This document shows, in pieces, positions 1 through 29,596 of a stretch of 29,596 nt of DNA; the stretch's first letter is position 1; every line of letters begins with the position of its first letter. The stretch lies in the IMG/VR virus record IMGVR_UViG_2541047905_000021; one strand, written 5' to 3'. The DNA comes from a virus. Lineage: Duplodnaviria; Heunggongvirae; Uroviricota; Caudoviricetes. The notes beneath the pieces were generated by a model. The model made no database searches. It was not told the DNA's origin and saw nothing but the letters and a program-made list of their open reading frames with translations. The position numbers and the translations under genes were made by a program.

Positions 1-981
1 TTATAACGTCACTCCGCCTTTTAGAGGATTCAGCGCGACGGCATTTTGCAGGTAGTCAGGCGCAAGGTGCGCATAGGCCATCGTCTGCTGAATGCTCGCA
101 TGTCCCAGAATCTGTTGCAGTGCGATTATATTGCCCCCATTCATCATGAAATGGCTTGCGAATGTATGCCGCAGGATGTGGGTTGCCTGATTGGGTGGTA
201 TATCTGGCTTCACTCTGCGTAAAATCCCGCAAAACTTCTCATAATCAACTTTGAATAATTTAGCGCTGGCCTCCTCTTTAACTTTTTTCTCCAGTTCCTC
301 AGAAATCGGCACGGTTCGCTTTTTACCGTTTTTGGTTTTCAGGAAGGTAACCCTGCAATTTGTAATCTGTGCTGGTTTTAGCGTGGCAACTTCCGTCCAT
401 CTTCCTCCAGTGCTCAGACATAAAAGTGCGACAAGTAAGTCATCACCATCCAAAACATTTAACAGTTTTTCGATTTCTGCTTTTTCCAGGAACGTCATTT
501 CAGGGTTGGCCTCCGCCAGTGGCGGCAGTCCGTGAATTGGGTGTTGCCCGGAAAATTCATCCAATTGAATTAATTTTGTGAACATGCCGGATAATCGGTA
601 CATGTCACGGTTTATCGTTGCGGCACTGATACCATCACGTAGTCGCATGGAACGATAATCCATCAAAGCTCTTTTGCTCATCCGGCTCACTGGTATATCA
701 CCTATGCCGCTGATGGTTTTGAGCAGATGATTAAACTCTTTTGTTCCATGCTCGTGGTTTTGCCCGTGATATTTCCACCAGATGTCCAGCAACTCACTCA
801 AAGTTCTGCGATCTGCTCGCTGACCTGCCCATTCTTTCTGGCTGGCGTAGGCGATTGTGTATCGCTCAAATGCTACAGCCTCAGCTTTTCTTTCAAATTT
901 CCTGCGGATGCGTTTTCCGTCGCGACCGCGAGGTCTAATGTCCACTTCATAGCGTCCATCATCGAGCTTCTTAATTGACAT
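1..981 (-). CDS. int: P2-type tyrosine integrase. The preferred start is MSIKKLDDGRYEVDIRP; the six-frame ORF extends to 1011.
   Basis: The N-terminus from MSIKKLDDGRYEVDIRP onward resembles my recollection of P2 Int, which begins MAIKKLDDGRYEVDIRP. The C-terminal catalytic motifs HxLRHTFASHF and ILGH...MAYAH are present. The stop codon is at bases 1-3, and the gene sits next to the C repressor as in P2. Confidence 0.9.
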   Translation of the reverse strand: MSIKKLDDGRYEVDIRPRGRDGKRIRRKFERKAEAVAFERYTIAYASQKEWAGQRADRRTLSELLDIWWKYHGQNHEHGTKEFNHLLKTISGIGDIPVSRMSKRALMDYRSMRLRDGISAATINRDMYRLSGMFTKLIQLDEFSGQHPIHGLPPLAEANPEMTFLEKAEIEKLLNVLDGDDLLVALLCLSTGGRWTEVATLKPAQITNCRVTFLKTKNGKKRTVPISEELEKKVKEEASAKLFKVDYEKFCGILRRVKPDIPPNQATHILRHTFASHFMMNGGNIIALQQILGHASIQQTMAYAHLAPDYLQNAVALNPLKGGVTL

Positions 982-1050
982 AAGAAAGCCCTCTGACGCT
1001 GTATTCACCATCTTGGTAACAAATGGTGAAAATGTAATGTTTATAGAGTG

Positions 1051-1454: not shown

Positions 1455-1496
1455 TGGATCTAATAAGGGTAACACGAAAGCAAAAAGGGCTAATCA

Positions 1497-1769
1497 ATGG
1501 AAGTCAATGACTATGTGATTCAGTACCCGATTGATGCGGTACATACGGTTAAGTTTGCAGAGTTACTTGGTAAGCCAGAAACGGCTGTAGTAAAGATGGT
1601 AAAAGAGAATAAATTGCCAGTTATTGAGCTTCGTGATCCAAGTAAGCCGAACGCTCGTGTCGGTGAGAAGTGGGTTTTCATTCCAGAGTTTAATCGCGCT
1701 GTACGAGAGGCGTTTTATAACCGACCAGTTGAACAGCGTGATGCATGGCTTTTGTGGATGGGGTTGTGA
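1497..1769 (+). CDS. cox: Cox-like excisionase and Pc repressor
   Basis: 90 aa, compared with 91 aa for P2 Cox. The motif KLPVIELRDP...GEKWVFIPEFN...RDAWLLWMGL parallels P2 Cox (KLPVIDMTDP...GEYWVYLP...RDGWLMWLGL). It is the first gene after Pe. Confidence 0.85.
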   Translation: MEVNDYVIQYPIDAVHTVKFAELLGKPETAVVKMVKENKLPVIELRDPSKPNARVGEKWVFIPEFNRAVREAFYNRPVEQRDAWLLWMGL

Positions 1770-3525: not shown

Positions 3526-5791
3526 AGCCTCCGGGCGTTTTGTCCCTCCGTCAACATTTGCTGCAGGTACCGGTAAGACGTTTACCGGTGCTTATGCATG
3601 GAACGCGCCACGCGAGGCCGTCGGGCGCGAAAGACCCCTTACACGTGACGAGATGCGTCAGGTGCAAGGTGTTTTATCCACGATTAACCGCCTGCCTTAC
3701 TTTTTGCGCTCGCTGTTTACTTCACGCTATGACTACATCCGGCGCAATAAAAGCCCGCTACACGGGTTTTATTTCCTCACATCCACTTTTCAGCGTCGTT
3801 TATGGCCGCGTATTGAGCGCGTTAATCAGCGCCATGAAATGAATACCGACGCGTCGTTGCTGTTTCTGGCAGAGCGTGACCATTATGCGCGCCTGCCTGG
3901 AATGAATGACAAGGAGCTGAAAAAGTTTGCCGCCCGTATCTCATCGCAGCTTTTCATGATGTATGAGGAACTCTGCGATGCCTGGGTGGATGCGCATGGC
4001 GAAAAAGAATCGCTGTTTACGGATGAGGCGCAGGCTCACCTGTATGGTCATGTTGCTGGCGCTGCACGTGCTTTCAATATTTCCCCGCTTTTCTGGAAAA
4101 AATACCGTAAAGGACAGATGACCACGAGGCAGGCATATTCTGCCATTGCCCGCCTGTTTAACGATGAGTGGTGGACTCATCAGCTTAAAGGCCAGCGTAT
4201 GCGCTGGCATGAGGCGTTACTGATTGCTGTCGGGGAGGTCAATAAAGACCGTTCACCTTATGCCAGTAAACATGCCATTCGTGATGTGCGTGCGCGCCGC
4301 CAGGCAAATCTGGAATTTCTTAAATCGTGTGACCTTGAAAACAGGGAAACCGGCGAGCGCATCGACCTTATCAGTAAGGTGATGGGCAGTATTTCTAATC
4401 CTGAAATTCGCCGGATGGAGCTGATGAACACCATCGCCGGTATTGAGCGTTACGCCGCCGCAGAGGGTGATGTGGGGATGTTTATCACGCTTACCGCGCC
4501 GTCAAAGTATCACCCGACACGTCAGGTTGGAAAAGGCGAAAATAAAACCGTCCAGCTTAATCACGGCTGGAATGATGAGGCATTTAATCCAAAGGATGCG
4601 CAGCGTTATCTCTGCCGTATCTGGAGCCTGATGCGCACGGCATTCAAGGATAATGATTTACAGGTCTACGGTTTGCGAGTCGTCGAGCCACACCACGACG
4701 GAACGCCGCACTGGCATATGATGCTTTTTTGTAATCCACGCCAGCGTAACCAGATTATCGAAATCATGCGTCGCTATGCGCTCAAAGAGGATGGCGACGA
4801 AAGAGGAGCCGCGCGAAACCGTTTTCAGGCAAAACACCTTAACCGGGGCGGTGCTGCGGGATATATCGCGAAATACATTTCAAAAAATATCGACGGCTAT
4901 GCACTGGATGGTCAGCTCGATAACGATACCGGCAGACCGCTGAAAGATACTGCGGCGGCTGTTACCGCATGGGCGTCAACGTGGCGCATCCCGCAATTTA
5001 AAACGGTTGGCCTGCCGACAATGGGAGCTTACCGTGAGCTACGTAAATTGCCTCGCGGCGTCAGCATTGCTGATGAATTTGACGAACGCGTGGAGGCTGC
5101 ACGCGCCGCCGCAGACAGTGGCGATTTTGCGCTGTATATCAGCGCGCAGGGCGGGGCAAATGTCCCGCGCGATTGTCAGACTGTCAGGGTTGCCCGTAGC
5201 CCGTCGGATGACGTTAACGAGTACGAGGAAGAAGTCGAGAGAGTGGTCGGCATTTACGCGCCGCATCTCGGCGCGCGTCATATTCATATCACCAGAACGA
5301 CGGACTGGCGCATTGTGCCGAAAGTTCCGGTCGTTGAGCCTTTGACTTTAAAAAGCGGCATCGCCGCGCCTCGGAGTCCTGTCAATAACTGTGGAAAGCT
5401 CACTGGTGGTGATACTTCGTTACCGGCTCCCACACCCTCTGAGCACGCCGTAGCAGTGCTTAATCTGGTTGATGACGGTGTCATCGAATGGAGTGACCCG
5501 GAGGTCGTGAGGACGCTCAGGGATGCATTAAAACACGGCCTGAAAACACCAAATCGTCAGCAAAGAAACGGAAGCCCGTTAAAACCACATGAAATAGCAC
5601 CGTCGGCCAGACTGACCCGGTCGGAACGATTGCAAATTACCCGTATCCGCGTTGACCTCGCTCAGAACGGTATCAGGCCGCAACGATGGGAGCTTGAGGC
5701 GCTGGCGCGTGGCGCGACCGTAAATTATGACGGGAAAAAATTCACGTATCCGGTTGCTGATGAGTGGCCGGGGTTCTCGTTACCCATTTGA
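3515..5791 (+). CDS. A: Replication initiation endonuclease gpA, a rolling-circle HUH nickase
   Basis: 758 aa from MAVKASGRF, compared with 761 aa for P2 gpA. It has the HUH-type motif EPHHDGTPHWHMMLF and the two-tyrosine motif GYIAKYISKN. The longer ORF starting at 3473 would overlap orf83 extensively. Confidence 0.9.
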   Translation: MAVKASGRFVPPSTFAAGTGKTFTGAYAWNAPREAVGRERPLTRDEMRQVQGVLSTINRLPYFLRSLFTSRYDYIRRNKSPLHGFYFLTSTFQRRLWPRIERVNQRHEMNTDASLLFLAERDHYARLPGMNDKELKKFAARISSQLFMMYEELCDAWVDAHGEKESLFTDEAQAHLYGHVAGAARAFNISPLFWKKYRKGQMTTRQAYSAIARLFNDEWWTHQLKGQRMRWHEALLIAVGEVNKDRSPYASKHAIRDVRARRQANLEFLKSCDLENRETGERIDLISKVMGSISNPEIRRMELMNTIAGIERYAAAEGDVGMFITLTAPSKYHPTRQVGKGENKTVQLNHGWNDEAFNPKDAQRYLCRIWSLMRTAFKDNDLQVYGLRVVEPHHDGTPHWHMMLFCNPRQRNQIIEIMRRYALKEDGDERGAARNRFQAKHLNRGGAAGYIAKYISKNIDGYALDGQLDNDTGRPLKDTAAAVTAWASTWRIPQFKTVGLPTMGAYRELRKLPRGVSIADEFDERVEAARAAADSGDFALYISAQGGANVPRDCQTVRVARSPSDDVNEYEEEVERVVGIYAPHLGARHIHITRTTDWRIVPKVPVVEPLTLKSGIAAPRSPVNNCGKLTGGDTSLPAPTPSEHAVAVLNLVDDGVIEWSDPEVVRTLRDALKHGLKTPNRQQRNGSPLKPHEIAPSARLTRSERLQITRIRVDLAQNGIRPQRWELEALARGATVNYDGKKFTYPVADEWPGFSLPI

Positions 5792-5860
5792 GTAAAAATA
5801 CAACGTGATTTGATATGGCATTGAATGGCTTATGCGGAGCAGTTATGGGGCAGCAGAAGG

Positions 5861-5898
5861 TCAATAGCATGCTGAATTAGAAGGCTAAATGCTATTGA
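5861..5898. other. Hairpin or inverted repeat TCAATAGCAT-N18-ATGCTATTGA
   Basis: Perfect 10-bp arms in non-coding DNA about 70 bp after the A stop. No T-run follows, so it is not a canonical terminator. Confidence 0.5.
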
Positions 5899-5972
5899 GT
5901 GACTAGCATGTCGGTAAGGACAGCCGTTTGATCCTGGTCATAAAAGGCCATCCATTTAGTCTAATAAAATCA

Positions 5973-6001
5973 TTGCGGGTAACCTTATGTCGACGCATAA
6001 T
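5973..6001 (+). promoter_or_regulatory. Candidate sigma70 promoter for the plus-strand sRNA: -35 TTGCGG (5973-5978), 17-bp spacer, -10 CATAAT (5996-6001)
   Basis: The hexamers and spacing were read directly from the sequence. An AT-rich tract (CTAATAAAAT) lies upstream. The predicted start is about 6008-6010, right at the 15-nt repeat. Confidence 0.35.
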
Positions 6002-6006
6002 TCGTC

Positions 6007-6021
6007 TTGAGCGAAGTCTTG
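6007..6021. repeat. 15-bp direct repeat, copy 1 (TTGAGCGAAGTCTTG)
   Basis: It is identical to 6271-6285. It lies at the predicted 5' end of the plus-strand sRNA. Confidence 0.95.
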
Positions 6022-6081
6022 TCAGTCTTTCATCGTATTGATGATGGGCGCAAAAAAACCACCCTGGCAGGTGGTTTTTTT
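6009..6081 (+). ncRNA. Candidate antitoxin-like sRNA of about 73 nt, made of a 5' seed, a small stem-loop (6030-6044) and an intrinsic terminator
   Basis: A promoter-like element lies upstream. The 5' sequence is complementary to the minus-strand leader at 6285-6271. There is an internal stem TCATC/GATGA and a terminal GC stem followed by a U7 tail. No credible ORF is present. Confidence 0.4.
6052..6081. terminator. Bidirectional rho-independent terminator (AAAAAAACCACC-CTGGCA-GGTGGTTTTTTT)
   Basis: A GC stem, CCACC/GGTGG, is flanked by an A7 run on one side and a T7 run on the other, so it can terminate transcription in both orientations. It sits 12 nt beyond the stop of the minus-strand 37-aa ORF. 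Confidence 0.8.
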
Positions 6082-16108: not shown

Positions 16109-16744
16109 ATGAACACTCTCGCAAATATCCAGGAACTCGCGCGCGCACTGCGCAACATGATCCGCACCGGCATTATCGTCGAAACCGACCTTAACGCCGG
16201 TCGCTGCCGTGTGCAGACCGGCGGCATGTGCACCGACTGGCTTCAGTGGCTGACCCATCGCGCCGGGCGTTCGCGCACATGGTGGGCACCTTCCGTGGGG
16301 GAACAGGTGCTGATTCTGTCCGTGGGCGGTGAACTCGACACGGCGTTCGTTCTGCCGGGGATTTATTCCGGCGATAACCCCGCGCCGTCTGCGTCGGCTG
16401 ATGCCCTGCATATCCGTTTCCCTGACGGGGCGGTGATTGAGTATGAACCCGAAACCAGTGCACTCACGGCAAGCGGAATTAAAACGGCCAGCGTGACGGC
16501 TTCCGGCTCTGTTACTGCCACGGTGCCGGTGGTCACGGTGAAAGCGTCAACCCGTGTCACCCTGGACACACCGGAAGTGGTCTGCACTAACAAACTGACT
16601 ACCGGCACGCTGGAAGTGCAGAAGGGCGGGACGATGCGCGGCAACATCGCGCATACCGGCGGTGAACTCTCATCAAACGGTAAGGTACTGCATACCCATA
16701 AACACCCCGGCGACAGCGGCGGCACAACCGGGAGTCCTTTATGA
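16109..16744 (+). CDS. V: Baseplate central spike gpV
   Basis: 211 aa beginning MNTLANIQELARALRNMIRTG, as in P2 gpV. Confidence 0.9.
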   Translation: MNTLANIQELARALRNMIRTGIIVETDLNAGRCRVQTGGMCTDWLQWLTHRAGRSRTWWAPSVGEQVLILSVGGELDTAFVLPGIYSGDNPAPSASADALHIRFPDGAVIEYEPETSALTASGIKTASVTASGSVTATVPVVTVKASTRVTLDTPEVVCTNKLTTGTLEVQKGGTMRGNIAHTGGELSSNGKVLHTHKHPGDSGGTTGSPL

Positions 16745-24060: not shown

Positions 24061-26500
24061 CAATGTAAAATTACAGGTATTGCTCAGGGCTGTTGACCAG
24101 GCATCCCGCCCGTTTAAATCCATCCGCACAGCGAGTAAGTCGCTGTCGGGGGATATCCGGGAAACACAAAAATCACTGCGCGAGCTGAACGGTCACGCAT
24201 CCCGTATTGAGGGATTTCGCAAGACCAGCGCACAGCTTGCCGTGACTGGTCATGCACTTGAAAAGGCACGGCAGGAAGCCGAAGCCCTTGCCACACAGTT
24301 TAAAAACACTGAACGTCCGACCCGTGCTCAGGCGAAAGTGCTGGAATCCGCAAAGCGTGCGGCGGAGGACTTACAGGCGAAATATAACCGCCTGACAGAT
24401 TCCATTAAACGCCAGCAGCGGGAACTGGCCGCTGTGGGAATTAATACCCGCAATCTTGCACATGATGAGCAGGGACTGAAAAACCGTATCAGTGAAACCA
24501 CCGCACAGCTTAACCGTCAGCGTGACGCGCTGGCGCGTGTCAGTGCACAACAGGCAAAACTTAACGCAGTAAAACAGCGTTATCAGGCCGGAAAGGAACT
24601 GGCCGGAAATATGGCCTCAGTGGGCGCTGCCGGTGTGGGGATTGCTGCTGCGGGAACGATGGCCGGAGTTAAGTTGCTGATGCCCGGTTATGAGTTTGCG
24701 CAGAAAAACTCAGAATTGCAGGCTGTGCTCGGTGTGGCAAAAGACTCCGCCGAAATGGCTGCACTACGCAAGCAGGCGCGCCAGCTCGGCGACAATACCG
24801 CAGCCTCGGCAGATGATGCAGCCGGTGCGCAGATTATTATTGCGAAAGCCGGTGGGGATGTTGATGCCATTCAGGCGGCAACGCCGGTCACGCTGAATAT
24901 GGCGCTGGCGAACCGTCGCACGATGGAAGAAAACGCCGCCCTGCTGATGGGGATGAAATCCGCCTTTCAGCTTTCAAACGATAAGGTCGCTCATATCGGG
25001 GATGTTCTCTCCATGACGATGAACAAAACCGCCGCCGATTTTGACGGTATGAGCGATGCGCTGACCTATGCCGCACCAGTGGCAAAAAATGCCGGTGTCA
25101 GCATTGAAGAAACCGCCGCAATGGTCGGGGCGCTGCATGACGCAAAAATTACTGGTTCAATGGCGGGGACGGGAAGCCGTGCCGTGTTAAGCCGCCTGCA
25201 GGCACCGACGGGAAAAGCATGGGATGCACTCAAAGAGCTTGGTGTGAAAACCTCAGACAGCAAGGGAAATACCCGACCAGTATTTACCATTCTGAAAGAA
25301 ATGCAGGCCAGTTTTGAGAAAAACCGGCTCGGTACTGCCCAGCAGGCTGAATACATGAAAACTATTTTCGGGGAGGAGGCCAGCTCAGCCGCCGCCGTGC
25401 TGATGACTGCCGCCTCAACTGGAAAGCTGGACAAACTGACCGCTGCGTTTAAAGCCTCAGACGGGAAGACCGCTGAGCTGGTAAATATCATGCAGGACAA
25501 CCTCGGCGGTGACTTTAAGGAGTTTCAGTCCGCTTATGAGGCGGTGGGGACTGACCTGTTTGACCAGCAGGAAGGCGCACTGCGTAAGCTCACGCAGACG
25601 GCCACAAAGTATGTGTTAAAACTCGACGGCTGGATACAGAAAAACAAATCACTGGCGTCAACCATCGGCATCATTGTCGGTGGTGCACTGGCGCTGATTG
25701 GTGTCATCGGTGCCATTGGCCTCGTAGCCTGGCCGGTTATCACCGGCATCAATGCCATCATCGCGGCAGCAGGCGCAATGGGAGCAATCTTCACGACGGT
25801 TGGCAGTGCTGTTATGACGGCCATCGGGGCGATTAGCTGGCCGGTTGTGGCCGTGGTGGCCGCCATTGTCGCCGGGGCGTTACTTATCCGTAAATACTGG
25901 GAGCCTGTCAGCGCATTCTTTGGCGGTGTGGTTGAAGGGCTGAAAGCGGCATTTGCGCCGGTGGGGGAACTGTTCACGCCACTTAAGCCGGTGTTTGACT
26001 GGCTGGGCGAAAAGTTACAGGCCGCGTGGCAGTGGTTTAAAAACCTGATTGCCCCGGTCAAAGCCACCCGGGACACCCTGAACCGTTGCCGTGATACGGG
26101 CGTCATGTTCGGGCAGGCACTGGCTGACGCGTTGATGCTGCCGCTTAATGCGTTCAACAAACTGCGCAGCGGTATTGACTGGGTACTGGAAAAACTCGGT
26201 GTTATCAACAAAGAGTCAGGCACGCTTGACCAGACCGCCGCCAGAACTCATGCCGCCACGTATGGCACCGGTGGTTATATTCCGGCGACCAGCTCTTATG
26301 CAGGCTATCAGGCTTATCAGCCGGTCACGGCACCGGCTGGCCGCTCTTATGTGGACCAGAGTAAAAACGAATATCACATCAGCCTGACGGGTGGTACTGC
26401 ACCGGGGACACAGCTTGACCGCCAGTTACAGGATGCGCTCGAAAAATACGAGCGGGATAAACGTGCGCGCGCCCGTGCCAGCATGATGCATGACGGTTAA
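24053..26500 (+). CDS. T: Tail tape measure protein gpT
   Basis: 815 aa, the P2 gpT length. It has coiled-coil N-terminal and Ala/Gly-rich hydrophobic central segments. Confidence 0.9.
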   Translation: MSNNVKLQVLLRAVDQASRPFKSIRTASKSLSGDIRETQKSLRELNGHASRIEGFRKTSAQLAVTGHALEKARQEAEALATQFKNTERPTRAQAKVLESAKRAAEDLQAKYNRLTDSIKRQQRELAAVGINTRNLAHDEQGLKNRISETTAQLNRQRDALARVSAQQAKLNAVKQRYQAGKELAGNMASVGAAGVGIAAAGTMAGVKLLMPGYEFAQKNSELQAVLGVAKDSAEMAALRKQARQLGDNTAASADDAAGAQIIIAKAGGDVDAIQAATPVTLNMALANRRTMEENAALLMGMKSAFQLSNDKVAHIGDVLSMTMNKTAADFDGMSDALTYAAPVAKNAGVSIEETAAMVGALHDAKITGSMAGTGSRAVLSRLQAPTGKAWDALKELGVKTSDSKGNTRPVFTILKEMQASFEKNRLGTAQQAEYMKTIFGEEASSAAAVLMTAASTGKLDKLTAAFKASDGKTAELVNIMQDNLGGDFKEFQSAYEAVGTDLFDQQEGALRKLTQTATKYVLKLDGWIQKNKSLASTIGIIVGGALALIGVIGAIGLVAWPVITGINAIIAAAGAMGAIFTTVGSAVMTAIGAISWPVVAVVAAIVAGALLIRKYWEPVSAFFGGVVEGLKAAFAPVGELFTPLKPVFDWLGEKLQAAWQWFKNLIAPVKATRDTLNRCRDTGVMFGQALADALMLPLNAFNKLRSGIDWVLEKLGVINKESGTLDQTAARTHAATYGTGGYIPATSSYAGYQAYQPVTAPAGRSYVDQSKNEYHISLTGGTAPGTQLDRQLQDALEKYERDKRARARASMMHDG

Positions 26501-26514
26501 GGAGGTGACGAAAA

Positions 26515-26994
26515 ATGATGCTCGCGTTAGGTATGTTTGTTTTTATGCGCCAGACGCTGCCACACCAGACCATGCAGCGTGAATCAGATTATCGCTGGCC
26601 GTCAAATTCCCGTATCGGTAAACGGGATGCCTACCAGTTTCTCGGCGTTGGTGAGGAAAACATGACGCTTGCCGGTGTGCTTTATCCCGAACTGACCGGC
26701 GGCAAGCTGACGATGACCACGCTCAGACTGATGGCAGAGGAAGGCCGGGCGTGGCCGTTGCTGGATGGCACCGGCATGATTTACGGCATGTATGTCATCA
26801 GCAAGGTGAGTGAAACAGGGAGTATTTTCTTTGCAGACGGCACACCCCGGAAAATTGATTTTACGCTGTCGCTCACCCGCGTTGATGAATCACTGGCCGC
26901 GCTTTATGGCGATATCGGTAAACAGGCGGAATCGCTCATCGGTAAGGCTGGCAGTATGGCGACTAAATTCACGGGTATGACGGGGGCGGGATAA
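26515..26994 (+). CDS. U: Tail protein gpU
   Basis: 159 aa, the P2 gpU length. Confidence 0.85.
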   Translation: MMLALGMFVFMRQTLPHQTMQRESDYRWPSNSRIGKRDAYQFLGVGEENMTLAGVLYPELTGGKLTMTTLRLMAEEGRAWPLLDGTGMIYGMYVISKVSETGSIFFADGTPRKIDFTLSLTRVDESLAALYGDIGKQAESLIGKAGSMATKFTGMTGAG

Positions 26995-28157
26995 TGCTGG
27001 ATGCACTGACATTTGATGCAGGCAGTACGCTGACGCCGGATTACATGCTGATGCTCGACAGCAGGGATATTACCGGCAATATCAGCGACCGTCTGATGAG
27101 CATGACCCTGACGGATAACCGGGGCTTTGAGGCTGACCAGCTTGATATTGAACTGAACGATGCCGACGGGCAGGTCGGACTACCGATTCGTGGCGCTGTC
27201 CTGACGGTGTATATCGGCTGGAAAGGTTTTGCCCTGGTATGCAAAGGGAAATTTACCGTTGATGAGGTTGAACACCGGGGCGCACCGGATGTGGTCACCA
27301 TCCGCGCCCGGAGTGCAGATTTTCGCGGGACGCTCAATTCCCGCCGTGAAGGCTCATGGCATGACACCACGCTCGGTGCGATTGTTGAGGCGATAGCCTC
27401 CCGTAACAGGCTGGAAGCCAGTGTCGCTCCGTCACTGGCCGGAATTAAAATCCCGCACATCGACCAGTCGCAGGAGTCTGATGCGAAATTTCTGACCCGT
27501 CTTGCAGAACGCAACGGCGGTGAGGTGTCGGTAAAAATGGGAAAACTGCTGTTTCTCAAAGCGGGGCAGGGGGTGACGGCCAGCGGTAAAAAAATCCCGC
27601 AGGTCACCATCACCCGCAGCGACGGTGACCGCCATCATTTTGCGATTGCTGACCGTGGAGCCTACACCGGCGTAACGGCAAAGTGGTTACACACCAAAGA
27701 CCCGAAGCCGCAAAAGCAGAAGGTAAAACTGAAACGCAAAAAGAAAGAAAAACACCTGCGCGCACTGGAGCACCCGAAAGCAAAACCGGTCAGGCAGAAG
27801 AAAGCGCCAAAAGTACCGGAAGCGCGCGAAGGTGAATACATGGCCGGTGAGGCTGACAACGTTTTTGCCCTGACCACGGTATATGCCACGAAAGCACAGG
27901 CCATGCGTGCCGCTCAGGCGAAGTGGGATAAACTGCAACGGGGCGTTGCGGAGTTCTCCATCAGCCTGGCTACCGGTCGTGCTGATATTTACACGGAAAC
28001 ACCGGTTAAAGTATCAGGCTTTAAGCGCGTCATAGACGAGCAGGACTGGACAATCACTAAGGTGACACATTTTCTGAATAATAGCGGCTTCACGACGTCC
28101 TTAGAGCTTGAGGTCAGGCTTTCTGATGTGGAGTACGAAACAGAAGATGATGAGTGA
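26994..28157 (+). CDS. D: Tail/baseplate hub protein gpD
   Basis: 387 aa, the P2 gpD length. Its start overlaps the U stop. Confidence 0.85.
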   Translation: MLDALTFDAGSTLTPDYMLMLDSRDITGNISDRLMSMTLTDNRGFEADQLDIELNDADGQVGLPIRGAVLTVYIGWKGFALVCKGKFTVDEVEHRGAPDVVTIRARSADFRGTLNSRREGSWHDTTLGAIVEAIASRNRLEASVAPSLAGIKIPHIDQSQESDAKFLTRLAERNGGEVSVKMGKLLFLKAGQGVTASGKKIPQVTITRSDGDRHHFAIADRGAYTGVTAKWLHTKDPKPQKQKVKLKRKKKEKHLRALEHPKAKPVRQKKAPKVPEAREGEYMAGEADNVFALTTVYATKAQAMRAAQAKWDKLQRGVAEFSISLATGRADIYTETPVKVSGFKRVIDEQDWTITKVTHFLNNSGFTTSLELEVRLSDVEYETEDDE

Positions 28158-28238: not shown

Positions 28239-28457
28239 ATGTTTCATTGTCCTTTATGCCAGCATGCCGCACATGCGCGTACAAGCCGCTATATCACTGA
28301 CACGACAAAAGAGCGTTATCACCAGTGTCAGAACGTGAATTGCAGCGCCACGTTCATCACCTATGAGTCGGTACAGAGATACATCGTGAAGCCGGGAGAA
28401 GTCCACGCCGTAAGGCCGCACCCGTTGCCGTCAGGGCAGCAAATTATGTGGATGTGA
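28239..28457 (+). CDS. ogr: Late gene transcriptional activator Ogr (zinc finger)
   Basis: 72 aa from MFHCPLCQHAAHARTSRYI, the P2 Ogr length, with the CxxC...CxxxxC zinc-finger pattern. Confidence 0.9.
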   Translation: MFHCPLCQHAAHARTSRYITDTTKERYHQCQNVNCSATFITYESVQRYIVKPGEVHAVRPHPLPSGQQIMWM

Positions 28458-28467
28458 TCACAAAAAT

Positions 28468-28494
28468 AGCCCCTCAGTTGAGGGGCTTTATTTA
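28468..28494 (+). terminator. Intrinsic terminator after ogr (AGCCCCTC-AGTT-GAGGGGCT-TTATTTA)
   Basis: An 8-bp perfect stem with a T-rich tail begins 11 nt after the ogr stop. Confidence 0.8.
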
Positions 28495-28500
28495 TGGTCG

Positions 28501-28519
28501 ATGTGGACGCTATGTGGAC
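28501..28519. repeat. Direct repeats ATGTGGAC (28501-28508 and 28512-28519); candidate Int arm-type binding sites of the P' arm
   Basis: The copies are exact 8-mers spaced 11 bp apart (one helical turn), between ogr and the host junction. As I recall, the P2 Int arm consensus is TGTGGACA. A degenerate third copy, ATGTGGAT, is at 28446-28453. Confidence 0.55.
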
Positions 28520-28585
28520 AGCGGTTGACATAAATCCATTTATATCATCAGGTTAGGTGCTTTTTTTTGACACCATCCCTGTCTT

Positions 28586-28612
28586 CCCCCACATGCTGTG
28601 GGGGTTTTTTTT
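28586..28612 (+). terminator. Host intrinsic terminator (CCCCCACA-TGC-TGTGGGGG-T8), probably the cpxP 3' end / CpxQ terminator
   Basis: The hairpin plus T8 run is strong. In E. coli K-12, cpxP lies immediately upstream of fieF in the same orientation. The sequence GACACCATCCCTGTCTTCCCCCACATGCTGTGGGGGTTTTTTTT matches my recollection of the CpxQ 3' part. Confidence 0.6.
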
Positions 28613-28693
28613 ATCCTCAATTTGCCTGCTGCTTAATGCATTGCAGATGATTTGCTTCCGTTATACTAGCGTCAGTTGATAGCGGGAGTATTT

Positions 28694-29596
28694 ATGAATC
28701 AATCTTATGGACGGCTGGTCAGTCGGGCGGCGATTGCTGCGACGGCGATGGCTTCGCTGCTATTGCTGATTAAAATTTTTGCATGGTGGTATACCGGGTC
28801 GGTGAGTATTCTCGCCGCGCTGGTGGATTCGCTGGTGGATATCGGCGCGTCGTTGACGAATTTATTGGTGGTGCGATATTCCCTGCAACCTGCCGACGAT
28901 AATCACTCGTTTGGTCACGGTAAAGCTGAGTCCCTCGCGGCGCTGGCGCAAAGTATGTTTATCTCCGGTTCGGCACTATTCCTGTTTTTGACGGGTATTC
29001 AACATCTGATATCTCCAACACCGATGACAGATCCAGGCGTCGGGGTTATCGTGACAATTGTGGCGCTAATTTGTACGATTATCCTTGTCTCGTTTCAGCG
29101 TTGGGTGGTGCGGCGGACGCAAAGCCAGGCGGTGCGGGCTGATATGCTACATTACCAGTCTGATGTTATGATGAACGGCGCAATTCTGCTGGCGCTGGGG
29201 TTGTCCTGGTACGGCTGGCATCGCGCCGATGCTCTGTTTGCATTGGGAATCGGCATCTATATTTTATATAGCGCGTTACGCATGGGATATGAGGCGGTAC
29301 AGTCATTACTGGATCGCGCATTGCCTGATGAGGAACGGCAAGAAATTATTGATATCGTGACTTCCTGGCCGGGTGTTAGCGGCGCTCACGATCTTCGCAC
29401 GCGGCAGTCAGGGCCGACCCGCTTTATTCAGATTCATTTGGAAATGGAAGACTCTCTGCCTTTGGTTCAGGCACATATGGTGGCGGATCAGGTAGAGCAG
29501 GCTATTTTACGGCGTTTTCCGGGATCGGATGTAATTATCCATCAGGACCCCTGTTCCGTCGTACCCAGGGAGGGTAAACGGTCTATGCTTTCATAA
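28694..29596 (+). CDS. fieF: Cation diffusion facilitator (ferrous iron/zinc efflux pump) FieF/YiiP, a host gene
   Basis: 300 aa from [36 protein letters not shown], recognisably E. coli FieF. The stop is at the last base of the window. Confidence 0.95.

Follow-up and report, generated by a model that had tools for sequence, protein, structure and literature searches.

Does a prophage that integrates between cpxP and fieF, inside the sequence that yields the small RNA (sRNA) CpxQ, cost its host an intact CpxQ? The question is raised by positions 28495-28693 of a 29,596-nt stretch of viral DNA, hereafter the window, which form the attR junction region of a near-complete P2-like prophage. An initial annotation of this region had placed the prophage in the cpxP-fieF interval and had proposed that integration separates cpxP from its native 3′ end, so that the production or sequence of CpxQ could be altered in lysogens. 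Our comparisons with empty sites, other lysogens and free phages show that annotation to be correct on the location and mistaken in its main implication, which is essentially refuted. The reading we favor, to which we assign a probability of roughly 90%, is that 28495-28693 represents the attR of a P2/WPhi-type (Peduovirus) prophage, that its att core lies in CpxQ, and that attL rebuilds the full-length sRNA.

Organization of the window and of the attR junction

The limits of the window coincide exactly with two stop codons, that of int on the left and that of fieF on the right. The features that bear on the integration site are as follows.

1 to 981, minus strand: int, a P2/WPhi-type tyrosine integrase of 326 aa (from the open reading frame list and its translation)
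28239 to 28457, plus strand: ogr, encoding the late-gene activator, the final phage gene ahead of attR
28468 to 28496, plus strand: intrinsic terminator of ogr, with a hairpin at 28468-28487 (8-bp stem, six G-C pairs) followed by TTATTTATGG
28497 to 28524, plus strand: predicted P-arm Int arm-type sites, two direct ATGTGGAC repeats at 28501-28508 and 28512-28519
28526 to 28568, plus strand: P-arm spacer, homologous to the IHF-bound region of P2 and ending in a T8 run at 28561-28568
28569 to 28615, plus strand: att core (O), 47 bp, the identity common to attR, attL, attB and attP
28569 to 28612, plus strand: orphan 3′ fragment of CpxQ, nt 15-58, with a hairpin at 28586-28604 and a U8 tail at 28605-28612
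28596, plus strand: polymorphic base at core position 28, equal to CpxQ nt 42 in the terminator loop; C in the window
28616 to 28693, plus strand: host DNA upstream of fieF (B′ side), with the same sequence as in the empty site
28694 to 29596, plus strand: fieF, a CDF cation-efflux transporter gene of the host flanking attR, with its ATG at 28694

All the elements on which the initial annotation was built, namely ogr, its terminator, the two repeats, the T8 run, a quoted string and the fieF upstream sequence, could be located in the window. The string, GACACCATCCCTGTCTTCCCCCACATGCTGTGGGGGTTTTTTTT, is found exactly at 28569-28612, and the orphan CpxQ fragment that it represents stands immediately 5′ of the fieF promoter region. 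The T-rich tail of the ogr terminator contains an interrupted T tract, and the element aligns with the terminator annotated in the P2 record. RefSeq labels ogr as ogrK in genomes with 96-100% identity to the junction. As for int, an in-frame ATG 10 codons upstream (982-1011, minus strand) would extend the reading frame to 1011 and the protein to 336 aa; the 326-aa form is the one used by RefSeq and by existing gene calls.

Delimitation of the att core

We compared a 321-nt junction query with 5426 complete Escherichia coli genomes, all of which matched part of it; the ogr side was also covered in 787 of the 5426, and the other matches listed mostly begin at window position 28569. Over 28569-28760 the window is 98-100% identical to empty cpxP-fieF sites, which confirms the placement of the prophage in that interval. 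The core itself was delimited by a three-way comparison of an empty site (NZ_CP075469.1, in which a 148-bp spacer separates cpxP from fieF), the attL of a lysogen (NZ_CP024228.1, in which cpxP is followed by 186 bp and then int, and whose attR is identical to the window over 321 nt) and the attR of the window. The block common to all three, GACACCATCCCTGTCTTCCCCCACATG[C/A]TGTGGGGGTTTTTTTTATC, is 47 bp long and occupies 28569-28615, and its two copies in NZ_CP024228.1 lie 31,784 bp apart. In the empty site the quoted string begins 24 nt past the cpxP stop codon, and its resemblance to the cpxP 3′ region is therefore not due to chance.

The initial annotation had noted that attL lies off the window, which is so by a narrow stretch: in the eight loci carrying the window's exact integrase the attL core ends 115 bp before window position 1, outside the window, the distance from core to int stop codon being 115 bp in 8 of 8. 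Checks of the kind that it had proposed, alignment with an empty cpxP-fieF site and a search for attL and the duplicated core, have defined the 47-bp core by way of other lysogens.

Correspondence between the core and CpxQ

CpxQ is a 58-nt Hfq-dependent sRNA that RNase E cuts from the cpxP 3′ UTR, of which it represents nearly the whole (PMC6755755, PMC9438474); it carries a 5′ U and a U at position 7 (PMC10250213), and the seed that it uses for nhaB and cfa is its 5′ end (PMC6755755). A search of Rfam 15 matched no CpxQ family, so the limits of the sRNA were not taken from that database, and its 5′ end was placed from the published length of 58 nt, the 5′ U and the U at position 7. In the empty site the cpxP stop codon is followed in order by TAAACCCTG, TTTTCCTTGCCATA and the core, with TTTTCCTTGCCATA beginning 10 nt past the stop, and a count of 58 nt backwards from where the U8 tail ends leads to UUUUCCUUGCCAUA followed by GACACC..., in agreement with the length, the 5′ U and U7. 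Because this count fits all three published facts, we infer that the 47-bp core corresponds to CpxQ nt 15-58, i.e., the last 44 nt with the terminator included, plus ATC. Indeed, 28569-28612 is identical to nt 15-58 of the K-12-type allele. The overlap of the att core with the sRNA, suspected from the start, thus extends over nt 15-58 of its 58 nt, and phage DNA, GGTGCTTTTTTTT, stands at attR in place of CpxQ nt 1-14, also as anticipated.

The window copy retains one hallmark of the sRNA, a Rho-independent terminator with a U tail (the Hfq-binding 3′ module), in the form of the hairpin at 28586-28604 and the T8 that follows. It has the same sequence as CpxQ over nt 15-58, but it begins at nt 15, without the 5′ seed (UUUUCCUUGCC...) of the full 58-nt sRNA, and it is found downstream of ogr and the P arm rather than directly 3′ of the cpxP stop codon. 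In a comparable lysogen this copy lies ~31.8 kb from cpxP, whereas the attL copy, outside the window, does follow cpxP. The window copy is a displaced fragment and not a cpxQ gene.

On the strand opposite to CpxQ, the Rfam model RF02628 (Hrs1) matches window 28546-28612 (minus strand; 41.4 bits, E = 9e-7, below the gathering score), and the same match recurs at 1472-1544 (minus strand) of locus L001. The Hrs1 model starts with A7 and continues into a G+C hairpin, as an intrinsic terminator would if read on the complementary strand; Hrs1 thus has the look of a CpxQ orthologue whose database entry is in reverse orientation.

Integrase, arm-type sites and attP

The protein encoded beside the att site is a P2-type integrase with the Pfam domains PF24624 (Int_N) and PF00589 (Phage_integrase), 98% identical to the integrase adjoining cpxP in NZ_CP024228.1 and 52% identical to P2 Int. 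In loci with the exact 326-aa integrase, a Phage_Cox gene (PF10743) and an HTH_3 repressor gene adjoin int, and both are likewise annotated in NZ_CP024228.1. No complete genome in the collection exceeds ~96% to the prophage over 25 kb, NZ_CP024228.1 being identical only around attR.

The motif ATGTGGAC occurs three times in the window against about one expected, a count that 7 of 100 shuffles also reached and that is not significant in itself. The case for arm-type sites derives not from this count but from the spacing of the two P-arm copies, 11 bp from start to start, from their alignment with the 'Int P arm' protein_bind feature in the phage P2 record, and from the recurrence of the same repeat in the P′ arm of related phages and lysogens, where it reads GTGTGGACACTATGTGGACAC. 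In the source strain the P′ arm itself falls outside the window. The P-arm repeats are conserved in P2, R18C and WPhi, and the P2-type arm-site consensus is given as tgTGGaCa (PMC3448106). Their proposed role as candidate Int arm-type sites is thereby strengthened, and homology to P2 suggests that they would be bound by the integrase. The adjoining spacer (28526-28568) aligns with the IHF protein_bind feature of the P2 record, and a strict WATCARNNNNTTR match is absent there; the IHF element is for this reason placed by homology, and the spacer is a candidate for IHF binding.

We also rebuilt attP from the left arm of attR and the right arm of attL and matched it to free phage genomes, in which it was recovered in R18C (99.8%), L-413C (97.7%), WPhi (91.4%), HQ103, P2_AC1, fiAA91-ss and others. 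Alignment of R18C, L-413C and WPhi reveals an identical 47-bp core with A at position 28, and arm repeats that are conserved even where the flanks diverge. In the mechanism we propose, attP would comprise two tgTGGaCa arm repeats in each arm, an IHF-type bend region and the 47-bp core, and the phage tyrosine integrase (1-981) would recombine it with an attB consisting of CpxQ nt 15-58 plus ATC.

Reconstitution of CpxQ at attL

In 8 of 8 places read, the exact 326-aa integrase lies 185 bp from cpxP, with cpxP, cpxR and cpxA following. The attL of all eight loci contains TTTTCCTTGCCATA complete and joined to the core, with A at position 28, and a full-length 58-nt CpxQ is present in each attL read. 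The attL of NZ_CP024228.1 likewise holds a complete CpxQ, which differs from the K-12-type sequence by a single base, C to A at nt 42 in the terminator loop. The initial annotation had expected cpxP at attL to receive a phage-supplied copy of the core, and this is what both the lysogen attL junctions and the free-phage attP sites display; as the phage carries its own copy of the core, CpxQ is rebuilt at attL. Judging from the attL of these other lysogens, the same reconstitution very probably took place in the source strain of the window.

The distribution of the two alleles at position 28 identifies A as the majority host form. The empty sites of four strains have it, BL21(DE3), an O157:H7 strain and two more, as do about 80% of E. 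coli; a C-allele query is exact on the cpxP side in 895 of the 5426 genomes. When searched with a 61-nt query, on which A-type attL junctions did not seed (probably through low-complexity masking), the C-type core was found in 1088 genomes, once in each and in none adjoining a P′ arm; two genomes that hold the core twice proved to be lysogens and have A at attL. Beyond E. coli, 117 of 117 loci from representatives of other species, collected with a 36-nt core and spanning Klebsiella, Citrobacter, Enterobacter, Kosakonia, Yokenella, Mixta, Erwinia and other genera, have A, and TTTTCCTTGCCATA is identical in all 114 species representatives with a readable host-type 5′ flank, as are all 58 nt. 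The idea that the C-to-A difference is a phage-specific mutation of CpxQ was considered and rejected, A being the majority and ancestral-looking host allele.

At attL, cpxP would thus keep its own stop codon, the RNase E processing region and CpxQ nt 1-14 with the 5′ seed, and the remainder of CpxQ and its terminator would come from the phage copy, equal to the commonest natural allele; at attR, the displaced host nt 15-58 would stay behind as an orphan terminator, with the phage P arm on one side and the fieF promoter on the other. Since the phage copy is the majority allele, lysogeny leaves the CpxQ sequence unchanged in A-type hosts, and in a C-type host, such as that of the window with its C at 28596, it would swap one natural loop allele for the other. 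Both nt-42 alleles adopt the same predicted fold (−17.4 kcal/mol), and the change is on this basis predicted to be functionally neutral.

Side of strand exchange

The same polymorphism serves as a marker of recombination. In ~165-193 genomes, C occurs only at the second core copy, away from cpxP, and since position 28 always segregates with the right-hand partner, both strand exchanges would take place 5′ of it. CCATCCC, flanked by the two halves of the GACA/TGTC inverted repeat (core positions 1-15), is one possible overlap region. By counts that do not represent independent events, occupancy of the site is similar in C-type (~15-18%) and A-type (~14%) hosts, so that heterology at position 28 appears not to matter.

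Alternative explanations

Because G+C-rich hairpins with T runs are common, the CpxQ-like stretch might, instead of being an att core, have arisen as a terminator by chance or convergence, or through a duplication in the host in which the integrase had no part. Nothing further speaks for this view, which can for practical purposes be dismissed: the 47-bp identity flanks the prophage on both sides in lysogens, is present once only in empty sites and is located between ogr and int in free phage genomes, and Int homologues lie 99-125 bp from it in seven species representatives. The three-way comparison, the free-phage alignments and the attL loci with the same integrase together refute it. A reading closer to the initial annotation, that lysogens make CpxQ of altered sequence or in altered amount because integration severs cpxP from its native 3′ end, is in our estimate very improbable. 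The attL segment 3′ of the crossover is indeed phage-derived, with a C-to-A change at nt 42 in C-allele hosts, and the DNA past the terminator becomes phage P′ arm and convergent int instead of the fieF promoter region. However, the phage copy equals the majority natural CpxQ allele, the changed base falls in the terminator loop with predicted structure and energy unaffected, the RNase E site region and the 5′ seed are still host-derived, and occupancy is alike in hosts of either allele. The notion of a meaningfully altered CpxQ sequence consequently fails, as the sRNA is full-length in every attL and the only change is that at nt 42 in C-allele hosts. An unchanged full-length CpxQ at attL, the finding that the initial annotation had itself regarded as decisive against its proposal, is observed outright in A-allele hosts; in C-allele hosts the sRNA is full-length and one loop base differs. 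CpxQ levels could nonetheless be affected by the changed surroundings of the terminator at attL or by transcripts originating in the prophage.

A related reading, which we consider unlikely, accepts that the CpxQ sequence is preserved and supposes that RNA transcribed at the junctions lets the prophage modulate the Cpx response. One route would involve int transcripts antisense to CpxQ and the cpxP 3′ end at attL: from the int stop codon to the core, the int strand contains no terminator-like site, and such transcripts could therefore run over CpxQ. In the other, read-through from ogr or the late genes would end at the orphan terminator, at attR or, during lytic growth, at attP, and yield a CpxQ-like RNA without the 5′ seed but able to bind Hfq. 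Consistent with this, the attR fragment keeps its hairpin and U8 tail on the ogr strand, the T tract of the ogr terminator is interrupted, and the predicted fold of the chimeric RNA retains the terminator. Weighing on the other side are the strong stem of the ogr terminator, the absence of a promoter-like site between ogr and the core (a sigma-70 promoter scan from ogr to fieF gave none upstream of the orphan fragment), the lack in the attR copy of the 5′ seed for nhaB and cfa (PMC6755755), and a literature search on CpxQ or cpxP and prophage integration that found no report of such an effect. An attR with its core in CpxQ and a full-length sRNA rebuilt at attL remains the preferred reading, and from the sequences no functional change is indicated.

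Prevalence and host range

The attR junction is present in the 787 and the attL junction in 780 of the 5426 complete E. coli genomes (~14%), figures that count lysogens in a clonally sampled collection and hence non-independent events. Homologues of the integrase with 65-100% identity lie at the above distance of 99-125 bp from the core in the seven species representatives, which include Pseudocitrobacter, Yokenella, Citrobacter and an Escherichia species; remnants are found at the site in Kosakonia and a Serratia sp., and a Salmonella Infantis prophage, PhiESI, has been placed in the cpxP-fieF interval (2026 preprint). The extreme conservation of CpxQ explains why the same target is found across genera by this integrase family.

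Several individual loci deserve mention. Some prophages at the site, such as that of NZ_CP187203.1 (locus 5347-5988), have a 642-bp hypothetical ORF (WP_000416606.1) between ogr and the P-arm repeats, which looks like a cargo insertion immediately beside attP. In NZ_CP125889.1 (locus 4884-6080) an ISApl1 element (IS30 family) sits just past the CpxQ terminator, between cpxP and fieF, and the terminator's T run is 7 long, not 8. A separate 32,330-bp record, NZ_JBQJRQ010000002.1 (strain 2020N21-246-1), has no match beyond the core and the first part of the P′ arm (16233-16286) and is probably an excised circular phage copy assembled as its own replicon. Two loci are devoid of integrase: in Citrobacter amalonaticus P55 (L045 1045-3000) the core and a P′-arm-like start are followed by 1.7 kb of inserted DNA, with one ORF of 339 aa and one of 154 aa, and then by fieF, and the species representative L101 (4999-6600) has the core, arm repeats and a 219-aa ORF; both inserts look like prophage remnants or cargo left behind. 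Finally, between its portal and replication genes (locus 24404-27107) the related NZ_CP024228.1 prophage has a hypothetical gene and two genes for AAA-family ATPases, a region that may be variable cargo or a defence locus.

Relation to known integration systems

Integration into the 3′ end of an RNA gene that is rebuilt from a phage-borne copy is a classical principle, exemplified at tRNA and tmRNA targets by 186 at tRNA-Ile and by Fels-2 and SopEPhi at ssrA. The prophages at cpxP-fieF resemble these RNA-gene integrators, and those at cyaR and rybB, in that the phage carries a copy of the RNA 3′ end including the terminator and leaves the gene intact. They differ in that CpxQ is a 3′-UTR-derived sRNA cut from an mRNA and not a free-standing gene; being cut from the cpxP mRNA, it makes the core also the supplier of the terminator of a protein-coding gene, cpxP. 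The site is itself on record, its mapping for WPhi having preceded the description of CpxQ in 2016. Literature searches for CpxQ or cpxP together with att sites or with the integration of prophages returned only listings of the cpxP-fieF site, none naming CpxQ. With the site published and the principle classical, the finding is one already known. WPhi and L-413C have an identical core and a site at MG1655 coordinate 4104392 (PMC3448106), the E. coli W genome paper lists 'cpxP-fieF: Wphi1 (P2)' (PMC3032704), and a 31-kb prophage between cpxP and fieF is listed in an O157:H7 study. Long cores are described as keeping tRNA genes intact (PMC3448106), and P2-type prophages are tabulated at the rybB ncRNA and the cyaR RNA (PMC3032704 Table 2).

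With WPhi and L-413C the window shares the chromosomal site, the identical 47-bp core and the arm repeats in attP, and the loci with its exact integrase share the WPhi-type P′ arm; it differs in that its P arm is nearest to that of R18C, with T8 instead of T6GT before the core. The prophage is in this respect a mosaic, R18C-like in the P arm and, in the exact-integrase loci, WPhi-like in the P′ arm. The locI module of P2 is laid out in the same way, from ogr and its terminator through the Int P-arm repeats, the IHF region (placed in the window by homology), the core and the Cox region to the P′-arm repeats and int. The arm repeats are conserved between the two and the integrases are 52% identical; the core and the host target differ. 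Divergence between P2 Int and the window integrase is greatest in the central part, in keeping with the published view that site specificity is determined by the core-binding domain (PMC3448106).

Implications

The analysis adds a precise annotation to a published attachment site, that of WPhi and L-413C, which would correspond to CpxQ nt 15-58 plus ATC. In prophage calling and sRNA annotation, a second, truncated 'CpxQ' is to be expected at attR, and in work on CpxQ in natural isolates it matters which junction is probed. As ~14% of E. coli genomes are occupied, an effect of junction RNA, if real, would amount to a widespread strain-to-strain difference in Cpx regulation. In about one in seven sequenced E. 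coli, the 3′ two-thirds of CpxQ and the cpxP terminator are phage-derived DNA.
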